Of a stretch of 28,437 nucleotides of DNA, positions 3,279 to 23,390 are shown piece by piece. A model generated the notes under the pieces. It was given only the letters and a program-made list of their open reading frames with translations. It ran no database searches and was not told the origin of the DNA. The stretch comes from a virus (taxonomy: Duplodnaviria; Heunggongvirae; Uroviricota; Caudoviricetes): positions 1 to 28,437 of IMG/VR virus record IMGVR_UViG_3300026224_000011; one strand, written 5' to 3'. The first letter of the stretch is position 1; every line of letters begins with the position of its first letter. A program made the translations under genes and the position numbers.

Positions 3279-3674
3279 TTAACTGAAATGAACCCAGACG
3301 CCATCGCCACAGATGCCGATCACTTTCCCGGCGACAGGACGGGCGCTGCTGTTGTCGGTTTTTGCCACGGTTACGCTGTCTTCCACGTAGCACAGCTTGC
3401 CGACCTGCGATTGTGTGACCGGGTCTGAGGTGCTGTTCACCATCAGAAAATCTTTGCCGCAACGCACCAGAACGGTGACATCGCCATCGCTGCCGGTGCT
3501 GTTATCCGCCCAGCCATCAGACACGCCCAGCGTAATCTGTGAGGCCGTGGCACTGGCCGGAACGGCATAACCGGATGCGTTAACGGCCACCATATGACCG
3601 CCAAAAATTTCGGTCGCAGCGGCAACCGGCACCGGGTTCAGCTCGCCGTCACGGTAGGGGGTATTGCGATCCAT
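3279..3674 (-). CDS. small head-associated protein (possible decoration/cement protein)
   Basis: 131-aa ORF, ATG at 3674 directly after the I gene stop, AGGAGA RBS; lies between the protease/scaffold and major head genes. Confidence 0.45.
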   Translation of the reverse strand: MDRNTPYRDGELNPVPVAAATEIFGGHMVAVNASGYAVPASATASQITLGVSDGWADNSTGSDGDVTVLVRCGKDFLMVNSTSDPVTQSQVGKLCYVEDSVTVAKTDNSSARPVAGKVIGICGDGVWVHFS

Positions 3675-4862
3675 TTACTCATCTCCTGCGTAATAGTCGT
3701 TTCCTGCATAACGGGCGATATCTTCTGGATCAGTGCCCATCATGGAACAAATGGCGATATCGACATCGACGTCATCGCCGGTTTTAATCTGCGCCGGGGC
3801 CGGTGACGGCGTTTTGGGTGGTTTGCCGCCGGTCTGTGTCTGACTGAGCGCAACAAGTTTCGGTGCGTTCTCCAGCCAGGACTTAAAGCCGTTGATATCG
3901 CGACCGGCGTAATCTTTCGCCCAGTCTTCCTGGGCCGGAAGCAGTCGCCCGTCAGACAGTGCCGCCTGAATCAGTGCCCCGGCTTCGGCCTCACCGGACT
4001 GTTGCGCCAGTGCGGCATAACGCCCCTGAAGTTCTTCAAAGGCAGCGAGGGAAATGTGTTTTGACGGGTCATAGGCATTGGCTGACAGGCTGGCGATTTG
4101 CTCGTCTTTCTGATTCAGCAGGGCCAGCAGACCAACAGAAGCCGCTGCCGTTCCTTTGCCACCAGAGACAGCATCAATAATTTTTTGCAGCTCTGCGCAT
4201 ACTTCCTCTGCGGTTGAGGTTTCCGGCAGCGTCAGCAGCCAGCGTAACTGCGCGAGTAAATTTGCTAATTGTTCCGGGTTCACGGTTTTGGTCTCCGTTT
4301 CAGTTGACAGACTCGCCAGACGGCTGGCCGCAGCCAGCATGACCGCGTCCATACCGTCGAGCGCAGGGGTATTGGTCAGCGCAGCGTGTAACAGCTCCAG
4401 CACTTCGCCGCGCTTGTTGTAGGCAAAAACAGGGGAAATAAACTTGTACTCACCGGCGGCAATCATGGCCGCCGCGTTCTCCGTCCACTCCACACCGGTG
4501 GCATACAGGCCCGCGCCTTCTCGCCATTCCACCTGGCTGAACCAGCCCGCCGCCGGGGCGGGCTTGCCGTTGTTTACGGCGCGCAGCGTCTGATGTTCGT
4601 AATCAATGACAAAAGGCGTGGTACGGGCTGCCACCTGCGCGACAAGCTGCGCGGCCAGTTCAGCGGTCAGCACCCATTTACCGCTTTCGACTTCATCGGT
4701 ATGTGGGCGACCATCCACCGCGCTGAACTCGCCCGCCGGAAACAGCTGGATTTCGCTGTGGGTTGCTTTAGTAATTTCGAGGCTTAATGCCGCAATGTTC
4801 AGTTTCATACGCGGCATGATGACGGAAGGGGAACACGGGGTACTGTGGAGGGTGTTCAGCAC
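3675..4862 (-). CDS. Mu I-like head protease/scaffold protein
   Basis: 395-aa ORF at the Mu I position between G and T; start uncertain (GTG 4862, ATG 4817 or ATG 4808; none has a clear RBS). Confidence 0.6.
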   Translation of the reverse strand: MLNTLHSTPCSPSVIMPRMKLNIAALSLEITKATHSEIQLFPAGEFSAVDGRPHTDEVESGKWVLTAELAAQLVAQVAARTTPFVIDYEHQTLRAVNNGKPAPAAGWFSQVEWREGAGLYATGVEWTENAAAMIAAGEYKFISPVFAYNKRGEVLELLHAALTNTPALDGMDAVMLAAASRLASLSTETETKTVNPEQLANLLAQLRWLLTLPETSTAEEVCAELQKIIDAVSGGKGTAAASVGLLALLNQKDEQIASLSANAYDPSKHISLAAFEELQGRYAALAQQSGEAEAGALIQAALSDGRLLPAQEDWAKDYAGRDINGFKSWLENAPKLVALSQTQTGGKPPKTPSPAPAQIKTGDDVDVDIAICSMMGTDPEDIARYAGNDYYAGDE

Positions 4863-15653: not shown

Positions 15654-16150
15654 TACGCACCTCCTTTGGCGTCAATATTTACAGCCTGGCAAGCCTCGTT
15701 GAGCACCCAGTCAACCGCGTCTTTCCATGCTCCGGTTTCGACTAGCGGATTCTCACACTTTACCTGTTCATAGAAACGCACTGCTTTAACTAGTCCTTCC
15801 GGTACTACCGATGCTGGCGGGGCAGCATAAAGCTCATGCATTCCATCAGGTAGCGAGTGACCTACATACTCACTGAACCCATCAACACGCATGTATCCAT
15901 CTTCAACAATGAATGACGCTACTGGCAAAGCTACCTCCCGTGCCTCCAGTTCTTCTGCCCACTCCCGAAGCCCTTCAATCTCACCATTACGAGCTATCAG
16001 ATCGCGACACAGTCTTTCGTTTTCATCCAGCAACGCCTGCACAACCTCCGGCGTAGCAGCAGCATGAAAAGCCTGTAGGTTCTGCCACGTCGTATCCCCC
16101 TTCGCGGCCACTGCCACCTCACGCAGTGCCTGATAGTTAATCTCACTCAC
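15653..16150 (-). CDS. Ea22-like family protein (tentative)
   Basis: Start placed at GTG 16148-16150, 6 nt after AAGGAGG; VSEINYQALREV... N-terminus and coiled-coil segment recall ead/Ea22-like prophage proteins. Confidence 0.4.
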   Translation of the reverse strand: MSEINYQALREVAVAAKGDTTWQNLQAFHAAATPEVVQALLDENERLCRDLIARNGEIEGLREWAEELEAREVALPVASFIVEDGYMRVDGFSEYVGHSLPDGMHELYAAPPASVVPEGLVKAVRFYEQVKCENPLVETGAWKDAVDWVLNEACQAVNIDAKGGA

Positions 16151-16239
16151 TGGTTGCCTCCTTTTTCCATATTCGGGTGCTTTTGCCAGTACCGCACACG
16201 GTTCTATCTGATTGCCATTAATTCGACACTTTAATTCAC

Positions 16240-16404
16240 TCACTTCAATTCCTCCCGACGACGTACCTGAAGTTCCAGCATTGCGGCCCGGAAATCCTGC
16301 CACCATTCCTCATCGGCAACGGGAGTGTTCCGCTCCAGCACCTTGTCCGCATCGGCAATCAGTCTGGTCAGGCTCTTATCGCTTATTCTGGTTTGCTGGT
16401 TCAC
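16240..16404 (-). CDS. small hypothetical protein
   Basis: 54-codon ORF from GTG 16402-16404, overlapping the upstream stop (GTGA); below the ORF-track size cut-off. Confidence 0.25.
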   Translation of the reverse strand: MNQQTRISDKSLTRLIADADKVLERNTPVADEEWWQDFRAAMLELQVRRREELK

Positions 16405-16625
16405 TGCGCCGCCTCCTGTTTTGCCACTTTAAACGCCCGTAACATCGGGACAGTCTTGCCGGTGATAACAGTTCTCATTAAAAGACCGCCACCGCTCTCA
16501 TGGTGCACTTCAGGGGCTACAAACAGCGCCGCATCTACAACCCGGCAATAGCGACGGAACTCCCAGAACCAGCAGGTGACAATGATTTTTGCGGTAACCC
16601 CATAGTCATAAAATTCAATATTCAT
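16401..16625 (-). CDS. hypothetical early protein
   Basis: 74-aa ORF; ATG overlaps the upstream stop (ATGA). Confidence 0.35.
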   Translation of the reverse strand: MNIEFYDYGVTAKIIVTCWFWEFRRYCRVVDAALFVAPEVHHESGGGLLMRTVITGKTVPMLRAFKVAKQEAAQ

Positions 16626-16849
16626 TTGCAGTTAAACCTTCTTTTGTGACGTTCTACGGCGGCTTTCATGGCGTTGTGCACGGTTCTTTTAATAATCCGG
16701 CGTCCCACACTGTCATAGAACCGCCACCGGGAATCCCCCGGATATTTAAGGAACTCAACCGCCGCGCTACCGTCATTCATCCTGTATTCGTGGCGTTCTC
16801 CGGGCGGCTGGTATATTGCTTCGGTAACACTGAGAAGTTTAAAAGCCAT
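16622..16849 (-). CDS. hypothetical early protein
   Basis: 75-aa ORF; ATG at 16849, 2 nt after the upstream gene stop. Confidence 0.35.
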   Translation of the reverse strand: MAFKLLSVTEAIYQPPGERHEYRMNDGSAAVEFLKYPGDSRWRFYDSVGRRIIKRTVHNAMKAAVERHKRRFNCK

Positions 16850-16851
16850 CG

Positions 16852-17568
16852 TTACACCCTCCCCAATGCCAGTGGTCTGTTGCTCTGACCATTAACCCCC
16901 TGATGCAGCCTGGCGTTTTTCCCGGCGATAAAACCGGCAGTAGCGGCAAACTCTGCACCCCGGCACGCTTTAGCTGTGCGCATATCCCCGTCGCGCAGCC
17001 CTTTCGTGCTGTGCAGGTTCTTTCTGTAAAGCTCAAGGCGACTTTTTTCTTCCGGGGAGACGTCATACACCGCAATGACATCACGGACACCAAAGACCCA
17101 GCCTTCGCAGAACTGGTCGCCACGGGCTACCCGCGTGGACGGGCCGCAACGTTTGCAGTGTTTATCCTGATATTTTTTACGTTCAGCCATCATCTGACGG
17201 GAAAGCACATCAAACGCGTATGCCGCAATTTCCGGGCGGCTGTCAGGACCATAAAAACGAACGTAACGTTTGAGTGAACCAGAAGCCCGGTATTCACCTG
17301 AGATGTAACACTCGACACCGAAGGCTTTACATACCAGGTCACACAGGATGTGCATATAACGCGGCGGCGTACTGGCATCACTCGGCGCACCCGCGCTGGC
17401 AGCTTCCTGAATGTCGAACAATTCCGCGTCGTTTTCGCTGATACCATGCTGGCGCATATAAGCCTGGGCTTTTGCAATAGCGTTAGCGGCTTCTTCCGGG
17501 CTTGATGTTCCTCTGGCAAGGCGTAACAGTTTTTTGATTTTGGCAATGTATTTGCTTTTATTTTCCAT
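16852..17568 (-). CDS. DUF2786-like phage protein (from memory)
   Basis: 238 aa; N-terminus KYIAKIKKLLRLARGTSSPEEAANAIAKAQAYM matches the DUF2786-type motif; GAGGGA RBS. Confidence 0.45.
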   Translation of the reverse strand: MENKSKYIAKIKKLLRLARGTSSPEEAANAIAKAQAYMRQHGISENDAELFDIQEAASAGAPSDASTPPRYMHILCDLVCKAFGVECYISGEYRASGSLKRYVRFYGPDSRPEIAAYAFDVLSRQMMAERKKYQDKHCKRCGPSTRVARGDQFCEGWVFGVRDVIAVYDVSPEEKSRLELYRKNLHSTKGLRDGDMRTAKACRGAEFAATAGFIAGKNARLHQGVNGQSNRPLALGRV

Positions 17569-17648
17569 AATGAATCCCTCAGATTCAGGCGTAAGCCAGC
17601 CCCGGCGGGTTTACGCCTGTTTTAAATAACAATTAAAAACAAATTAAA

Positions 17649-17840
17649 TTAATGCGCTGCTTTCAGTGTTTCGACTTTTACGAAATAAGGCTCGACATTA
17701 ATTTCAACCACACAACCACATTTAAAATCTCTGGCCGGTGCAACAGTTTTTACCACCCGACCACCACGCACCGCCTGATGTGCAATGTGCATGAAACGAG
17801 TACCAGGCGGATATAACTGATTAAAGCGTTTCGCGTTCAT
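17649..17840 (-). CDS. small hypothetical protein
   Basis: 63 aa from ATG 17840 (MNAKRFNQLYPPG...); overlaps the 3' end of the upstream gene. Confidence 0.3.
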   Translation of the reverse strand: MNAKRFNQLYPPGTRFMHIAHQAVRGGRVVKTVAPARDFKCGCVVEINVEPYFVKVETLKAAH

Positions 17841-18054
17841 GAATCGGCTTCCATCCTTTCTGGTGAGCATTGGCACAGAACTGTGCCCGGTGTTCTGCCC
17901 AGATGCGGCGCAGGGTGCTACACGGGCTTTGCGCTGCCTTACGCCACAGCTTTTCAGCCTCGGCATAATCGCCGCGTTGTTCTGCTCTGGACGCGCCCAG
18001 CGAATACGCCGCGCAACTATTTCTGGCTCTGTACTCTTTGATATCCTGATGCAT
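17821..18054 (-). CDS. small helical protein, possibly ANR-family-like regulator
   Basis: 77 aa from ATG 18054, adjacent to the upstream stop; ...GDYAEAEKLWRKAAQSP...WAEHRAQFC pattern. Confidence 0.3.
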   Translation of the reverse strand: MHQDIKEYRARNSCAAYSLGASRAEQRGDYAEAEKLWRKAAQSPCSTLRRIWAEHRAQFCANAHQKGWKPIHERETL

Positions 18055-18055
18055 G

Positions 18056-18700
18056 TTAAACCCCTGCAATATCAAGCGGGATTGCGCGGTATTCATCAGA
18101 ATCACCGACGCGCTCATACACGCGGATATAGCTTCTGCTACCAACCACCTGGACGGCTTCACCAATCAGTTTCATGGCGTTATCCCAGCGTTCCTCCGTA
18201 ATATCGAGACGACGCAGAGCCAGAACGCGACCGGTGTTGATGTTGCCTTCCTTGTCCGTGCTGAATGCCTCACTGATGATGGCCTTAATTTCAGGGCGTG
18301 CGCCTTCCGTCCAGTCAGCCAGACAGTCATCAATCAGCGCCTTCGCGGTCTGAATGCGTTCATCAAGCGCGATACGGTCCTGCATGGCGCGCTGAATCTT
18401 GTAACGCCCGTCAAAGCTGTAAAGCGTGATATTCCCTTTTTTACCGCCTTTCACAGCGCCGTATTTCTCCGCCGACAGGTCAATAAACGCCTGAATATCA
18501 CCAAACGCACGCAGTTTCAGTTCACGCAGTGAGGCGGAGGCAGCAATCACCATCTCCACCAGCTCACCGACCAGCTGCTCGCGGTCGCGGTCAATATCTT
18601 TGATAAGGCTTTCAGGTGTCATTACGCCACGGGCATCCACCCAGTAACCTTCAGGTGCCTGAGTTTTCGTGTATTGCTTAACTTTATTTTCAGTCGTCAT
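18056..18700 (-). CDS. conserved Mu-like early protein (DUF3164-like, from memory)
   Basis: 214-aa ORF, ATG at 18700; size and position typical of an early accessory gene of Mu-like phages. Confidence 0.45.
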   Translation of the reverse strand: MTTENKVKQYTKTQAPEGYWVDARGVMTPESLIKDIDRDREQLVGELVEMVIAASASLRELKLRAFGDIQAFIDLSAEKYGAVKGGKKGNITLYSFDGRYKIQRAMQDRIALDERIQTAKALIDDCLADWTEGARPEIKAIISEAFSTDKEGNINTGRVLALRRLDITEERWDNAMKLIGEAVQVVGSRSYIRVYERVGDSDEYRAIPLDIAGV

Positions 18701-18729
18701 AATTAAATTACCTCAGTGATATTTACAGA

Positions 18730-18945
18730 TTAATTTGTGTTATGTGCGCAGGGCGCAGCGTTTTCAGAAAAAATATTCACGCCGTTGTAGTCATTTCTCA
18801 GTGCTTCCTTGATAACATCATGTAATCCTGTTGCCACCTGAAACTCCCTTTCAGAAGCGCCATCCTTCAAATAACTTCCTGTAATCTGGGTTAAAACCCT
18901 GCCTTTTTCATTGGTATAGATAATTACTTCTAACTTAACCGCCAT
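18730..18945 (-). CDS. small hypothetical protein
   Basis: 71 aa from ATG 18945, 6 nt after AAAGGAG; AT-rich block. Confidence 0.4.
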   Translation of the reverse strand: MAVKLEVIIYTNEKGRVLTQITGSYLKDGASEREFQVATGLHDVIKEALRNDYNGVNIFSENAAPCAHNTN

Positions 18946-19126
18946 GTTTTTCTCCTTTGAAATCAAACGATTTAAAAATAATTTCGTTCATAAAACAGTG
19001 AGTTTTTATGATAATGTCGGAAACCTGCTCTCCCGTGACATCAGGCGGCAACTGATACGTCGCGACAGCTTTCTCCGGTTTACCAGGCCTGTCCAGGCTG
19101 AAGGTTAACTCAAGCTCTAATGACAT
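18935..19126 (-). CDS. small hypothetical protein
   Basis: 63-aa ORF; ATG at 19126 with GAGGA RBS; AT-rich block. Confidence 0.4.
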   Translation of the reverse strand: MSLELELTFSLDRPGKPEKAVATYQLPPDVTGEQVSDIIIKTHCFMNEIIFKSFDFKGEKHGG

Positions 19127-19141
19127 TTTCAGTTCCTCGTT

Positions 19142-19381
19142 TTACTGCCATACGACGGTGCAGCCGTCGATACAGGACGTTTTCACCACGCGGCGCAGGC
19201 CGCTGAATGTCTGGATGATTTCCGTTACCGGCCATACAGGACCACCCACGGGCGGGCAGGCATAAACCACAGGTAAACGGTGATGCTGCCCCGTTACACG
19301 ACCGCCAGTGGTGTGGATGGCCACACGGGCACGGGAACGGACGGCGTTAATGGTCTGCTTGTCCATCGTCTTGTTCTCCAT
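19142..19381 (-). CDS. hypothetical protein following the B gene
   Basis: 79-aa ORF whose ATG overlaps the B stop (ATGA); Cys pairs CPP...CIDGC; no family recognised. Confidence 0.3.
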   Translation of the reverse strand: MENKTMDKQTINAVRSRARVAIHTTGGRVTGQHHRLPVVYACPPVGGPVWPVTEIIQTFSGLRRVVKTSCIDGCTVVWQ

Positions 19382-20274
19382 CAGTGAATTAACATTTCTG
19401 CGAATTTATCAATGGCCTGCACACTGACCGGTGCATCGCTGATATCACAAATCCGGTACACACCGCGCGCCAGTTTGAAGAGGCGGCGGGCATTACCCAG
19501 CGAGCGTACGTAAAGCGCCTCGCTGATTTCCGGTTCTGCTGCTTCCGGCATCAGCCCGGTGGCTATCTGGTTAAAATCTTCCTGCGCCAGCGTATCGCCC
19601 AGGTTAAGCGCCAGCGCCACACGGCTGTATAACTGGGCGAACTCACCGCGACGTCCCTTGAGGTTAATCAGAAGGCGTGGCATACCCGCCAGGACAATCC
19701 CGATACCCGCTTTGTCATGCAGACGGCGCAGAACCTCCAGTGCGCGATAGGGGAGCAGTTCAGCCTCGTCCACCATCAGCAGGCGACCGGAATCACGCAG
19801 TTCTCGCACACATGCATCAATCAGTTCGTGGATATTGCCGCGAACTTTTACCCCCAGCTGGCGGCACAGCTCCTCAAGCAGTGTTCTGGCTGTATAGCCC
19901 GGGTCGGCTTCAATCAGGACCGCATCCCGGTTTCTGGCGGCGTATTCACGCAGAATCATTGTTTTGCCAAGACCTGCCGCGCCATACAGTACGCAGATTT
20001 CACATTCCAGGTGAGCATAGGCCAACACCTCCAGTCCTTTGGCAGCCATACCGGTGGCAACAAATTTCGCTTTAATACGGCGGCTGTTTTCCTTTTCCCG
20101 CTCACGGGTCACAAAGGCGAAAATGCGTTCTTCAATATCAGCCATATCGCCCTGATATTTACCCTGTAAATACTGGTTGATAACGGCGCTGCTACGACCA
20201 ATAGCACGGGCGACGTGGGTTTGCGTATAGCCGCGACGGGCCATTACGTCATTTAATTGCGTAATTAAACTCAT
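19381..20274 (-). CDS. MuB-like transposition ATPase (AAA+)
   Basis: 297 aa; N-terminal HTH-like region; Walker A GAAGLGKT; Walker B LLMVDEAE; directly downstream of the transposase. Confidence 0.8.
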   Translation of the reverse strand: MSLITQLNDVMARRGYTQTHVARAIGRSSAVINQYLQGKYQGDMADIEERIFAFVTREREKENSRRIKAKFVATGMAAKGLEVLAYAHLECEICVLYGAAGLGKTMILREYAARNRDAVLIEADPGYTARTLLEELCRQLGVKVRGNIHELIDACVRELRDSGRLLMVDEAELLPYRALEVLRRLHDKAGIGIVLAGMPRLLINLKGRRGEFAQLYSRVALALNLGDTLAQEDFNQIATGLMPEAAEPEISEALYVRSLGNARRLFKLARGVYRICDISDAPVSVQAIDKFAEMLIH

Positions 20275-20292: not shown

Positions 20293-22335
20293 TTAACGGT
20301 TGTTTGTGCCGTTTTTCTTTAAATTGCGTTCGCGTTCAGATGCGAATAAATAAAGTTCTTCTTTTTCCTTTTTCTCCGGGCGCTCCAGTCCATATCCCAG
20401 ATTAAAGTCAGGCTTCTGCGTAATGGCCGGGGTAAGCTCGCGTTTAGCTTCTTCGATTTTCTGCGTGGCCCGTGCAATGCGGCCCCTGACGCGTTTCTCC
20501 AGTTTTTGCTCGATAACTGGTTTAGCGAAGGCATCAACCTTGTTACCGTTCCAGATGGCATCGCAGATATAAGAGCCATCAGCCCGCCGGACAATGACGC
20601 TGTTTGCATCATGAATATCGTAACTGACCCTGACTTCATTCCCGTGCTCTGCGGCCAGCTCATATGAGTAATAAATATTGTTGAATAACTGAATTTCCCC
20701 GCGAAATGTTTTGCGCGTCACTTCCGGTCTGAACATTTCATGCAGTTCTTCCGGCGACAGCATGTCGATTTCAGCCTTTTGCTCTTTTATCAGTTTCCGG
20801 CGATACGCTGCCGGGCTGTAATATTCGCCATCCTCTTTGCGAGGAAGGCTGCTGTGTGGCCGGTTGTTATAGCGTCTGACCTCCAGCTCTATGGCTGCCA
20901 TCAGTTGCTCAAAGGTAGGGATTTCATCCCTCGCCTTAACCTGCCGTTTTGTCAGCTCTTTCCCTTTGTGGGTGGCCTTAATGGCTGACTGCATAATCCG
21001 TTGCTGCATCATTACGGTTTCCTTGTCTGCATCCCTTGCGCAGTACGTCTGGAAACTCAGAGCCACGTCTTTGGGTATTCCTTTGTTTGCCCGTTCAATC
21101 ACCCCGCGCCCCTGCGGGTTACCTGGTATCCCCGTGTGATGTTCCACACCCAGACGGGGCAGAATCCCGGTAATATCGGCATCAAGCACCCGGTTTTTTT
21201 CGCCGCCCCCGTTATCGGAGTAATAAATCAGCGGTATCCCGTGCTGTGCCATGCCGTAACGCAACGCATCAGCAACAGCTATCACGTTCTCCGACAGGGA
21301 CAGTGACCAGCCCACAACAAAGCGTTGCCCCGCATCCATAACCAGCGTCACTTCTGGCCGGAAAATATTGCCGGTCAGGGGGTTAAACGCGGTCATTTTC
21401 ATACAGTGACCATCCCCGACCCATACCGCATTAACCGGTAATGATGTCCAGTCGCGCCGCACAAAGGGATTGAGCGAACGCCAGGCTGAACCGGTGGAGC
21501 GGAAACGCTCTTTAACAATCACCGGGACGCTGCTTAACACCCGTCTTACTGCGTGAACTGAAGGCAGTGCCGCCAGCATTCCCGCATCATTCGCGTGTTT
21601 TTCATGCCACCAGGCTGAAAACTCACGATACGCATATTCAACAGTCGGGCGCTTCCATGAGCGATAGAACATAAAGAAATCGCTCAACCACCAGACCTGC
21701 TCCCACGGTGTTCCCTTATGATGACCGGGAGCCAGTAACGCCAGTAACTGATTGGCATCACCGCGCGCCATCACCCAGCTGGAGTACCAGCTATCCAGGC
21801 TGCCGGTGCTGACACCGGTTCGCTTTCCCTGACGTGCATTTGCAGTATTCGCTGCTTCGATAATGCGGTCAGGTAACGCCCCCATGCGCACACCATCAAC
21901 GATGTGCTTTAAAGCGGCCTTCCTGGTCATTCCGGCATACTCGCGCAGCTTATGCACTTCAGTAGCCAGCAATATCCGCGCATCAGCGATGGCCTTTTGC
22001 TTGTCGGTCAGTGACTGGACTTCGCGTAATGCCAGCTCCGGGCATTTGACCATCACCTCCAGTTCATCGCGAACGGCGACGTTTTTAACTGCTTTCTGCT
22101 CAACTACGGCGGGCAGTTGTGCATCTTCCAGGACCTGATGAGTCAGGCGCTTACGTAAAACTTTCTGCGCTTCAGCGGGCAGGCAGTCGATGTGATACTC
22201 GAATGCTTTGGTGCCTTCGCGCTTGCGCTTCCATTCTGGGTGCGTCTCTGTGATCCGATTGAGCGTCCAGCGCACCCCCTGAACTGTACCGGGCAAACCA
22301 GGAAGACCGGCCAGCTCATTGGCTGAATAAAACAT
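20293..22335 (-). CDS. MuA-like DDE transposase
   Basis: 680 aa; Mu A-like size and architecture; ATG overlaps the ner stop (TAATG). Confidence 0.85.
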   Translation of the reverse strand: MFYSANELAGLPGLPGTVQGVRWTLNRITETHPEWKRKREGTKAFEYHIDCLPAEAQKVLRKRLTHQVLEDAQLPAVVEQKAVKNVAVRDELEVMVKCPELALREVQSLTDKQKAIADARILLATEVHKLREYAGMTRKAALKHIVDGVRMGALPDRIIEAANTANARQGKRTGVSTGSLDSWYSSWVMARGDANQLLALLAPGHHKGTPWEQVWWLSDFFMFYRSWKRPTVEYAYREFSAWWHEKHANDAGMLAALPSVHAVRRVLSSVPVIVKERFRSTGSAWRSLNPFVRRDWTSLPVNAVWVGDGHCMKMTAFNPLTGNIFRPEVTLVMDAGQRFVVGWSLSLSENVIAVADALRYGMAQHGIPLIYYSDNGGGEKNRVLDADITGILPRLGVEHHTGIPGNPQGRGVIERANKGIPKDVALSFQTYCARDADKETVMMQQRIMQSAIKATHKGKELTKRQVKARDEIPTFEQLMAAIELEVRRYNNRPHSSLPRKEDGEYYSPAAYRRKLIKEQKAEIDMLSPEELHEMFRPEVTRKTFRGEIQLFNNIYYSYELAAEHGNEVRVSYDIHDANSVIVRRADGSYICDAIWNGNKVDAFAKPVIEQKLEKRVRGRIARATQKIEEAKRELTPAITQKPDFNLGYGLERPEKKEKEELYLFASERERNLKKNGTNNR

Positions 22336-22571
22336 TACGCCGCCTTACTGGCATACCGGCTTGGCCAGATCTCCGCAGGTTCCACACCAATAGCATCGGC
22401 TATGATGCGTTCATATTTAGGGCATGAGCGATACAGTGCATTTTTTAAAGAGTCTTTTTTTAGACCAGCGCGTTCAGAAAGTTCACGCAATGTAAAACCT
22501 TTGGTGTGCACAGCGGCAACGATGTACTCGCGGTGCCAGTCTTTGTTCATTACTTCATTTCTAACCATCAT
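22335..22571 (-). CDS. Ner-like DNA-binding regulator
   Basis: C-terminal ...EIWPSRY... and NKDWHR match Mu Ner; start placed at ATG 22569-22571; the ORF-track extension to 22709 is rejected. Confidence 0.75.
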   Translation of the reverse strand: MMVRNEVMNKDWHREYIVAAVHTKGFTLRELSERAGLKKDSLKNALYRSCPKYERIIADAIGVEPAEIWPSRYASKAA

Positions 22572-22739
22572 TAGGTTACCCTTAAAAGTTATCCGTGCGG
22601 ATAACACCGCCGTGTTATCCCTTCGGATATAAGTATTGATCCACAAATAGAAAATTACAAGCTTTCTTTTCTTTCTTTGGTGAAAAGAAAGTCTTTTTGA
22701 AGAAAGCACATGTAAATCAACACGTTAGAAGGAAAGAAA
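22572..22739. promoter_or_regulatory. ner-c divergent control region with operator-like repeats
   Basis: Overlapping inverted repeats ttatccg tg cggataa (22589-22604) and ggataacac cgcc gtgttatcc (22599-22620); CTTTC/GAAAG repeat array 22661-22735. Confidence 0.5.
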
Positions 22740-23390
22740 ATGAGTAAACAAATCGCTGATGATTTTTCCTTTTCTCAGGATAGAAAAGAAAGCATTCAAG
22801 ACAGAATCAAACAACTGATTGGCACCAGGAGCCTGCGTAAAGCCACCTCAGACTGGGGATTACCGTACTCGACCATAAATAACTACTTTGAAAAAGGCAC
22901 GACACCTGGCCTAAATGTGGTCGCTACAATAGCAAAATTAGAGAATGTATCACTGGAATGGCTGGTCTACGGTGAGAACAGAAGTGTTCCAATGGTAGAA
23001 AAATCAAGGGTGACTACAGAAGACGTTAACCGCCCCGATACAAGTATTGTTGACGAAATACTAAGACGAGCCGCTCCAGAAGATAGAGAGCGTCTTATTG
23101 ATATGCTTTGTTGTATTGGTATCAAAGGAGTCCTGGAACGCCTACAACAACCCACCAGGCAAGCGAAACAGGCCTACAACGACCTAGACGAACAGGAGAA
23201 TGCCATCAGAAGCCTGAACATCAGGGAATCGCTAAAAGACGCCATATGTATGGCATTAGATGGTAACGAAGAAATTGACAAAGAGATTTTGCGCCGCATC
23301 GAATCTCATATACGAGCTAGGTCGCCAGGTGGTCAGACCGTTGCCACGCCGGAGCAAGAAACGAAGCCTGTAAACAAGAAATCAGCATAA
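22740..23390 (+). CDS. prophage repressor (c-like)
   Basis: 216 aa; ATG after AAGGAAAG RBS; HTH-like N-terminal region; divergent from ner as in Mu; AT-rich. Confidence 0.65.
   Translation: MSKQIADDFSFSQDRKESIQDRIKQLIGTRSLRKATSDWGLPYSTINNYFEKGTTPGLNVVATIAKLENVSLEWLVYGENRSVPMVEKSRVTTEDVNRPDTSIVDEILRRAAPEDRERLIDMLCCIGIKGVLERLQQPTRQAKQAYNDLDEQENAIRSLNIRESLKDAICMALDGNEEIDKEILRRIESHIRARSPGGQTVATPEQETKPVNKKSA

Follow-up and report, generated by a model that had tools for sequence, protein, structure and literature searches.

A Mu-like prophage early operon of Escherichia with DUF3164 in the position of Gam and a distant homologue of Kil

The small genes that follow the transposition genes in a Mu-like prophage of Escherichia sp. 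TW09231 are, in our judgement, probably best read as an early operon of two layers, which lacks Gam, carries in the Gam slot a DUF3164 protein that would perform the function of Gam, and has directly after B a homologue of Kil that would block cell division. In phage Mu, Kil blocks host cell division and Gam protects linear phage DNA against host exonuclease; Gam has been ranked as a near-core gene in transposable phages. In itself the region is unremarkable for the early part of a Mu-like prophage, and its genes are already in the databases.

Layout of the early operon

The window (the whole stretch of 28,437 nucleotides that was analysed) shows the gene order that characterises early operons of transposable phages. 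On the minus strand lie, in this order, a Ner-like gene (phrog_769), transposase A (20293-22335; PF09299, PF02316), the transposition ATPase B (19381-20274; PF13401 AAA_22 at 6e-23, phrog_296 at 6e-103), the small genes, GemA (14131-14526; PF06252 at 2.8e-18, Mu GemA-seeded HMM at 4.7e-34) and Mor (PF08765), while a repressor (phrog_3037) is found on the plus strand, on the same upstream side as Ner, A and B. The block downstream of A and B, all of whose genes are on the minus strand, would correspond to the 'semi-essential early' part of the operon, and its transcription, judging from the gene layout, would most likely be by read-through from the early promoter over ner, A and B to gemA and mor. 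Promoter-like sites (6 seen against 11.1 expected) and terminator-like sites (14 against 11.9) do not exceed the expectation from shuffled sequence.

Ten minus-strand ORFs lie between positions 16240 and 19381, as counted approximately in the first-pass annotation, and each matches a PHROG family (E from 2e-26 to 3e-91), indicating conserved genes rather than chance ORFs. That annotation took this interval to reach from B to gemA; since gemA is located at 14131-14526, however, six further genes follow past 16240, down to 14498, and the block comprises 16 genes. From the B/Kil junction onward, the spacings within the interval are -1, +15, -11, +29, +1, -20, +80, +2, -4 and -4 nt. The description of the junctions as mostly overlapping is therefore roughly right: five of the ten overlap and five do not, with all but one at 29 nt or less. 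The 16 genes of the block are closely packed and would often be coupled in translation. PADLOC defence models gave no match among ten of the proteins.

A distant homologue of Mu Kil

The first gene of the block (19142-19381, 79 aa), which begins within the stop codon of B (1-nt overlap), has the small size (about 74-80 aa) and the position after B that are characteristic of Kil, and profile comparison identifies it as a distant homologue of Mu Kil, which the first-pass annotation had failed to recognise. The ORF matches phrog_2679 'Kil' at 8.4e-38 and phrog_2743, the family of Mu Kil itself, at 0.005; reciprocally, Mu Kil matches phrog_2679 at 9.3e-5. Alignment of the non-overlapping Kil sub-families with hhalign gives a probability of 92% (E 5.9e-7) over 58 columns that reach the C-terminus (22-79 against 15-74), and iterated HMMs arrive at identical sets of ORFs whichever seed is used (87 of 87). 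Members of the family are mostly found -31 to +36 nt after B. At about 24% identity, the window protein would, like Mu Kil, block cell division in the host. Neither a Kil nor an ANR homologue is present in the annotation of Pseudomonas phages LPB1 and JBD18, and the iterated Kil HMM found none in LPB1.

DUF3164 in the position of Gam

A gene further into the block encodes a DUF3164 protein of 214 aa (18056-18700; PF11363 at 4.6e-79 and 265 bits, cut-off 23.7, profile positions 1-193 of 194; phrog_846 at 3e-91), and it sits in the slot held by Gam in Mu-type early regions. Among 139 complete early regions, each with both B and GemA, 73 hold DUF3164 and 66 hold Gam, and none holds both (0/139), in sets that were ascertained by the presence of either protein and are phylogenetically clustered. 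Relaxed cross-searches were likewise empty (best E 0.06 and 6.5). Roseophages with DUF3164 have been reported to lack Gam (PMC5488378).

Gam is not recognisable in the region, as the first-pass annotation had noted, nor elsewhere in the window. The family (PF07352; PHROG 491, 2205 and 18351) had no match in Pfam and PHROG scans of the 22 proteins from Mor to A (the 16 block genes with A, B, GemA, Mor, phrog_5882 and phrog_7152). An HMM iterated from Mu Gam did not match the window, and the six-frame Gam HMM with filters off had no match there with an E of about 2 or less. The same six-frame search found no Gam in the complete genomes of LPB1 and JBD18. A separate homologue search with Mu Gam as query yielded no relative below 72% identity and so added no depth.

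The exchange of one protein for the other can be followed in two pairs of related Pseudomonas phages. In the genus Casadabanvirus, LPB1 (DUF3164) and D3112 (gam) share 97% identity as far as the start codon, and from 16 nt before the stop they are again alike at 95%. In Beetrevirus, JBD18 (DUF3164) and H72 (Gam) present the same pattern with flanks of 94.8% and 91.9%, so that in both D3112 and H72 Gam lies exactly at the DUF3164 position. The JBD18 cassette also includes a 63-aa gene, and that of D3112 a C-terminal phrog_1518 part, fused to the Gam part in a single 'gam' ORF. The LPB1 phrog_1518 protein, named 'host nuclease inhibitor', was considered as a second nuclease inhibitor and set aside, as the name seems to come from this D3112 ORF; the window has no phrog_1518 gene. 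The choice of DUF3164 or Gam does not track transposase type, and between Escherichia and Pseudomonas phages DUF3164 and Gam are each about 60% identical, far above A.

Taken together, the mutual exclusion and the cassette swaps suggest that DUF3164 does the job of Gam. We tentatively propose, as a reading with a little less than an even chance, that it stands in for Mu Gam in function without being homologous to it, and would shield linear phage DNA from RecBCD-type exonucleases by means of an unrelated fold.

The two proteins do not resemble each other. Alignment by hhalign gave a probability of 0.2-0.3% (0.2% with a 107-sequence DUF3164 profile), and the Ku-like fold by which a Gam protein would be known was not found for DUF3164. 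The BFVD library was uninformative in this respect, as Foldseek returned nothing from it at E≤0.001, phage DUF3164 models included. DUF3164 is mildly acidic (median pI 5.9) and Mu-type Gam near neutral, and the mechanism could therefore differ. An isoelectric point does not in itself tell whether a protein binds DNA ends or mimics DNA. No functional study was retrieved from the literature for DUF3164 or PF11363.

This lack of resemblance in sequence, fold and charge would also be expected if DUF3164 had a job unrelated to that of Gam, for instance in transposition, replication or regulation, and the exclusion reflected two alternative modules inherited as blocks; the phage would then have no end protection, or would obtain it from one of the small genes. 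It would fit such a division that DUF3164 has companions of its own, ANR, phrog_5591 and phrog_9400, which were never found in the 66 Gam loci. Roseophage virions, moreover, were found to contain DUF3164 peptides (PMC5488378), which is not known for Mu Gam. The swaps, on the other hand, are confined to one gene in LPB1/D3112, with 95-97% identity on both sides, and to DUF3164 and the 63-aa gene in JBD18/H72, so that block inheritance explains neither. Moreover, the choice cuts across transposase types, and no locus combines the two proteins even though Kil, DUF2786 and Mu gp6, gp8, gp9 and gp12 occur in both sets. We thus regard an unrelated job as rather unlikely.

Backbone and cargo

The genes of the block fall into two layers. 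The conserved backbone, which a large group of transposable phages has in common, consists of the Kil homologue after B, DUF3164, the ANR-like protein, phrog_5591, the DUF2786/DUF7168 protein and phrog_9400. The variable cargo occupies a few fixed slots; it includes an AT-rich pair that separates Kil from DUF3164, as well as small genes on the stretch from DUF2786 to gemA. In a gene-order table of more than 70 loci, dozens of those from IMG/VR repeat the order B-(Kil)-DUF3164-(ANR)-phrog_5591-DUF2786-phrog_9400-GemA.

The 77-aa ANR-family protein (17821-18054; NF033650 at 2.2e-15 and 56.2 bits, cut-off 32, profile positions 3-54 of 54) is encoded directly 3' of DUF3164 in many loci. This family of AraC negative regulators includes Aar of enteroaggregative E. 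coli; its members are small anti-activators with an additional effect on H-NS, as summarised in PMC11773190. Unlike in the setting of Aar, the gene here belongs to the conserved content of a transposable phage's early operon, and no AraC-type partner regulator was seen in the window. It is followed by a small basic protein of 63 aa (17649-17840; phrog_5591 at 3.8e-40; GC 0.45, below most neighbours), present in 39 of the 73 DUF3164 loci. The 238-aa protein at 16852-17568 (phrog_421 at 3e-71) carries, from N to C, DUF2786 (PF10979 at 5e-13, 49.1 bits, cut-off 23.9, residues 6-45) and DUF7168 (PF23771 at 6e-30, 104.1 bits, cut-off 25.5, residues 62-189), and occurs in 38 of the 73 DUF3164 loci and 9 of the 66 Gam loci. 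A second small basic protein (75 aa, 16622-16849; phrog_9400 at 1.2e-37) completes the backbone, with 30 of 73.

Within the cargo, the earlier observation of AT-rich genes at 18730-19126 is confirmed: a63 (63 aa, 18935-19126; phrog_38867 at 4e-49) and a71 (71 aa, 18730-18945; phrog_7438 at 3.5e-48, aligned from residue 8 of a longer ORF) have GC contents of 0.42 and 0.40, compared with 0.50-0.59 for most neighbours. They are found in 4 and 11 of the 73 DUF3164 loci, respectively; a63, whose listed cluster members are all Escherichia, is missing from some near-identical relatives. After phrog_9400 come a 74-aa protein (16401-16625; phrog_1001 at 1.7e-35) with an ATGA overlap of 4 nt with the preceding gene, and a 54-aa protein with a GTG start (16240-16404; phrog_14672 at 1.4e-32), again overlapping by 4 nt. 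The Ead/Ea22-like protein (15653-16306; PF13935 at 9e-13 and 49.4 bits, cut-off 27) lies largely beyond the interval in which it was first placed; the longest ORF shares 67 nt with the gene before it, and the real start is therefore probably later. Then follow a 56-aa gene (15483-15653; phrog_13831 at 7e-35), seen in the sequence to have a strong AAAGGAGG ribosome-binding site and a TAATG overlap, a 63-aa gene with ATGA overlaps at both ends (15295-15486; phrog_1380 at 4.9e-10), an acidic protein of 61 aa (15113-15298; phrog_8773 at 1.6e-46), a protein of 83 aa with an N-terminal hydrophobic segment (14857-15108; phrog_8391 at 4.9e-44) and, last before gemA, a protein of 104 aa (14498-14812; phrog_7844 at 7e-69). 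The identities first proposed for the DUF3164, DUF2786, ANR and Ea22 candidates all agree with the profile HMMs.

Relation to Mu and to other prophages

Compared with the semi-essential early region of phage Mu (AF083977, kil to gp14), the block occupies the same place and strand, after A and B and before gemA and mor, with similarly small, close-packed genes of which the first after B is of the Kil family. The content, as had been claimed, differs: only Kil, of the 11 Mu genes from B to gemA, has a counterpart in the window, and gp6-gp9, Gam, gp11-gp14 and gp54 have none. Likewise, hhalign of all window early families against all Mu early families found Kil alone. Mu lacks the DUF3164, ANR, DUF2786 and Ea22-like genes, and the transposition proteins are only 21% (A) and 32% (B) identical. 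The layout A-B-small genes-DUF3164-(DUF2786)-GemA-Mor is shared with LPB1, JBD18 and Shewanella phage MuM16-2, whose DUF3164 proteins are 42-60% identical to that of the window, although their small genes are otherwise unlike.

The near relatives of the region are prophages and not isolated phages: megablast matched none of 50,697 phage records, while 113 of 5426 E. coli genomes have a region of 93-96% identity. In E. coli and E. albertii, Mu-like prophages (e.g. NZ_CP148426.1 527544-531840 and NZ_CP196316.1 4780197-4783515) retain this identity over most of the region, with the backbone genes unchanged in kind and order; PGAP already labels the products as DUF3164, ANR, DUF2786, Ea22-like and hypothetical proteins. 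They differ from the window by whole small genes gained or lost at fixed slots, namely B/Kil, Kil/a71, phrog_5591/DUF2786 (0 to 1354 additional nt) and the positions that follow phrog_1001 and Ea22. Among these versions the window is on the compact side.

The first-pass annotation had proposed a lineage-specific mosaic of host-takeover genes without Kil or Gam counterparts, and part of this picture survives. The region is mosaic, as some small genes come and go among near-identical relatives, and 10 of the 11 Mu genes from B to gemA are without a homologue in it. Narrow distribution, moreover, is real for the AT-rich pair and for small genes downstream of DUF2786: a63, a71, phrog_1001, phrog_14672, phrog_8773 and phrog_8391 each occur in at most 11 of the 73 loci, and the members listed for the first four are nearly all from Escherichia, with a few from Salmonella. 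The proposal is nevertheless already refuted in part by the Kil homology and the conservation of the backbone, whose six genes are common well beyond the lineage (DUF3164 and DUF2786 also in Shewanella and Pseudomonas phages). The 113 E. coli genomes that carry the region also count against it, and as a whole we consider it improbable. It had named clear Gam and Kil homologues, in a gene set common to all Mu-like phages, as evidence that would overturn it, and one of the pair, Kil, is present while Gam is absent.

Lastly, it is very improbable that a true Gam homologue, diverged past recognition, is hidden in DUF3164 or a small ORF: the best Gam alignments (JBD18; hhalign), though non-significant, do coincide in one segment of DUF3164 (residues ~118-200, against Gam residues ~61-137), and missing Gam genes could be divergent, undetected ones (PMC8705779, review-type), but the profile comparison, the family scans and the six-frame search described above all speak against it.

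Implications

The Kil homologue has been missed by current annotation. The protein is labelled only 'hypothetical protein' at NCBI, and Kil is therefore wider among transposable phages than annotations suggest.

If DUF3164 does replace Gam, a second, structurally unrelated solution would exist in a large share of transposable phages, with hosts including Escherichia, Pseudomonas, Ralstonia, Burkholderia, Vibrio, Shewanella and alphaproteobacteria, and many 'Gam-less' phages would be explained. Mu Gam is in use as a DNA-end-binding tool, and an unrelated protein with its role would be of practical interest. The alternation of Gam and DUF3164 offers a concrete and cheaply testable hypothesis on a widespread protein family, which would thereby receive the first function for its approximately 1,700 sequence clusters (1665 at 50% identity in public data).

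Organization of the early region

The window contains a Mu-like transposable prophage, and the early genes make up its early operon; all genes of interest lie on the minus strand. A plus-strand repressor gene (22740-23390) faces a minus-strand Ner-like gene (22335-22709). Transposase A (20293-22335) and the AAA+ protein B (19381-20274) follow on the latter strand; a series of small genes then leads to GemA (14131-14526) and Mor (13229-13696), and an AT-rich gene whose product looks secreted (13796-14134) lies between these two. The relation to Mu is only distant, A and B being 21% and 32% identical to their Mu counterparts. From B onward the gene junctions measure -1, +15, -11, +29, +1, -20, +80, +2, -4 and -4 nt, and a scan of the early region against shuffled sequence returned no excess of promoter-like or terminator-like sites; the tight spacing and the lack of such an excess both fit a single early transcript.

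The string of small genes between B and gemA described in the first-pass annotation is real: each of the ten ORFs in 16240-19381 matches a PHROG family (E 2e-26 to 3e-91), and they are therefore conserved genes, three of them with a true start inside the longest ORF, where the family alignments begin. The interval 18730-19126 is indeed AT-rich, with a GC content of 0.40-0.42 versus 0.50-0.59 in most neighbours. The block had been taken to end at 16240, but gemA does not start there; the block reaches 14498. It holds 16 genes, since two further minus-strand genes, of 56 aa (15483-15653; phrog_13831, 7e-35) and 63 aa (15295-15486; phrog_1380, 5e-10), occupy an apparent 354-nt gap, with TAATG or ATGA overlaps with their neighbours. 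The families first proposed for these genes were recovered by profile searches, namely DUF3164 (PF11363, 4.6e-79) and DUF2786, the latter together with DUF7168, and ANR was confirmed by NF033650 (56 bits; cut-off 32). PF13935 likewise identifies the Ead/Ea22 protein, but its gene (15653-16306) lies outside the interval originally assigned to the block.

At 14799-14826, in the only sizeable gap before gemA, two perfect 12-bp inverted arms enclose a loop of 4 nt (GCAGACCAAAACATATGTTTTGGTCTGC). This repeat, which spans the start codon of the gene for the 104-aa protein (14498-14812), may serve as an operator, a terminator or an RNA element. The gene inserted between gemA and mor has a GC content of 0.38 and matches phrog_5882; its 112-aa product carries a signal-peptide-like N-terminal segment (MKKLLLLILALCFTGISHA...). 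It occurs in just 7 related loci and resembles a moron. Just downstream of it and ahead of mor lies a promoter-like TGTACA-16-TATAAT on the minus strand (13753-13726). The segment 23500-28437 is host flank, with prpR, prpB, prpC and yahN about 91.5% identical to E. coli. E. coli genomes match this segment at very many places (a median of 11 in each), which suggests that an IS or another repeated element makes up part of it. A protein identical to the window's DUF2786 protein is on record for Escherichia sp. TW09231.

A Kil homologue directly after B

No Kil homologue had been recognized between B and gemA. Judged by its sequence, however, the 79-aa ORF at 19142-19381, whose start overlaps the B stop, is distantly homologous to Mu Kil. 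Against PHROGs it gives E 8.4e-38 with phrog_2679, a family that bears the Kil annotation, and 0.005 with phrog_2743, while Mu Kil matches its own family phrog_2743 at 1.3e-42 and cross-matches phrog_2679 at 9.3e-5. Kil relatives were then gathered from 166 fetched loci and compared with hhalign as 9 non-redundant window-type and 31 Mu-type sequences, with none in common; the two profiles align over 58 columns with a probability of 92% (E 5.9e-7), and the match extends to a common C-terminal G-C-x-(I/V)-(I/V)-W-(R/Q). HMMs iterated from either the window-type or the Mu Kil seed reach the same ORFs, and most Kil-family ORFs are positioned -31 to +36 nt after B. The protein, publicly annotated as 'hypothetical', presumably has Kil activity.

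DUF3164 and Gam as alternatives

The reported lack of a Gam homologue, on the other hand, was borne out. Pfam and PHROG scans gave no Gam-family match in 22 window proteins from Mor to A, made up of A, B, GemA, Mor, phrog_5882, phrog_7152 and the products of the block's 16 genes; Mu Gam itself, as a control, matched phrog_491, phrog_18351 and phrog_2205. A 55-sequence Gam HMM likewise found no match in the six-frame translation of the entire window. BLASTP, iterated HMMs and all-against-all hhalign revealed no window counterpart of the Mu B-to-gemA genes other than Kil. Gam was once counted universal in transposable phages and has since been found in 30/47 genera (PMC8705779).

We retrieved IMG/VR loci centred on DUF3164 and on Mu-type Gam, 80 of each. 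Among the 139 loci with both B and GemA, DUF3164 is present in 73, Gam in 66 and both in none. The two families show no significant sequence similarity in direct comparison: cross-searches with HMMER filters off gave best E values of only 0.06 and 6.5, and hhalign a probability of just 0.2-0.3%. The choice between them is not bound to transposase type: 5 or 6 DUF3164 loci have A and B of Mu type, at about 53% identity, and 25 Gam loci have an A nearer to the window's. In two of the IMG/VR loci (L012 and L018), A and B are of Mu type, with about 53% identity to those of Mu, yet DUF3164, phrog_5591 and the AT-rich gene of 71 aa are present, so the DUF3164 module also occurs on Mu-type transposition backbones. 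Kil, DUF2786 and Mu gp6, gp8, gp9 and gp12 are present in DUF3164 and Gam sets alike.

Two natural cassette swaps provide the strongest evidence on DUF3164 and Gam. Within one genus of Pseudomonas phages, LPB1 and D3112 share 97% DNA identity until the slot gene's start codon, and 95% identity resumes 16 nt before the stop of that gene; LPB1 has DUF3164 in this slot, and D3112 has gam. In the B3-like group, a 63-aa gene plus DUF3164 in JBD18 stand against Gam in H72, between flanks 94.8% and 91.9% identical. The complete LPB1 and JBD18 genomes contain no Gam. Between Escherichia and Pseudomonas phages, DUF3164 is about 60% identical and so is Gam; A is about 43% identical across DUF3164 loci, a comparison biased by the choice of loci by DUF3164 similarity. 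Some roseophages with DUF3164 are also reported to be without Gam and to have DUF3164 peptides in their virions (PMC5488378).

The annotated 266-aa 'gam' of D3112 (3495-4295) consists of a Gam part (residues 4-156) and a phrog_1518/phrog_12417 part, the phrog_1518 part being a separate 93-aa gene in LPB1. The name 'host nuclease inhibitor' of PHROG 1518 probably derives from this D3112 gam.

The DUF3164 family comprises 1665 clusters at 50% identity (E <=0.001) and occurs in 209 phage records, including Ralstonia, Pseudomonas, Burkholderia, Vibrio and Shewanella phages; the literature searched assigns it no function. In an AlphaFold2 model built with 107 diverse sequences (pLDDT 91.6), a mixed sheet packs with four helices; the fold also has a beta hairpin and a helix of 45 residues. 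The family is mildly acidic, and nearly invariant positions include a G-x-K-G-N loop (86-90), W172, Y191, R193 and R197; speculatively, such residues would suit a nucleic-acid or phosphate ligand. The 90%-identity DUF3164 protein cluster also contains 77-aa ANR proteins, and the DUF2786 cluster the neighbouring 75-aa protein; this mixing appears to be an artefact of the clustering, perhaps caused by gene calls that were fused, rather than biology.

A conserved scaffold with variable cargo

The block had also been read as a mosaic specific to its lineage. Relatives at 93-96% identity are, instead, prophages in 113/5426 complete E. coli genomes; an E. albertii plasmid record also matches at this level, and no isolated phage does among the phage records searched. 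The region is of an ordinary prophage kind, sequenced and annotated before. Gene order compiled from family matches in more than 70 IMG/VR loci holding DUF3164 revealed a recurrent backbone, B-(Kil)-[slot]-DUF3164-(ANR)-phrog_5591-[slot]-DUF2786-phrog_9400-[slot]-GemA, and this recurrence argues equally against lineage specificity. Within the 73 complete DUF3164 loci, Kil is found in about 30, phrog_5591 in 39, DUF2786 in 38 and phrog_9400 in 30, with ANR in about 39 loci in all when the search was repeated with trimmed starts. The AT-rich pair between Kil and DUF3164 is far rarer (4/73 and 11/73), as are the small genes downstream of phrog_9400 (each <=8/73). The closest relatives (L001, L002, L006-L010) have the backbone in common and differ by whole-gene insertions at the slots. 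Since the backbone recurs and the whole-gene insertions fall at the slots, we describe the region as a conserved scaffold with variable cargo; 'mosaic' holds for the cargo genes, but not for the backbone. On the whole, the first-pass annotation was largely right in observation and half right in interpretation.

Proposed working of the block

In Mu, the corresponding block is transcribed from the early promoter along with ner, A and B. By analogy, the window's block would be co-transcribed with ner, A and B from an early promoter. Once the phage is induced or infects a cell, Kil would stop the host from dividing, and DUF3164 would act in Gam's role and protect linear phage DNA. A host AraC-type activator or H-NS may be the target of the ANR-like protein, as summarised for the ANR family (PMC11773190). 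Gene content, gene order, homologies, distribution and cassette swaps are direct observations; all biochemical activities in this mechanism we infer. The value of the region lies in part in a Kil homologue overlooked so far, and otherwise in a clear, testable lead to DUF3164 function.
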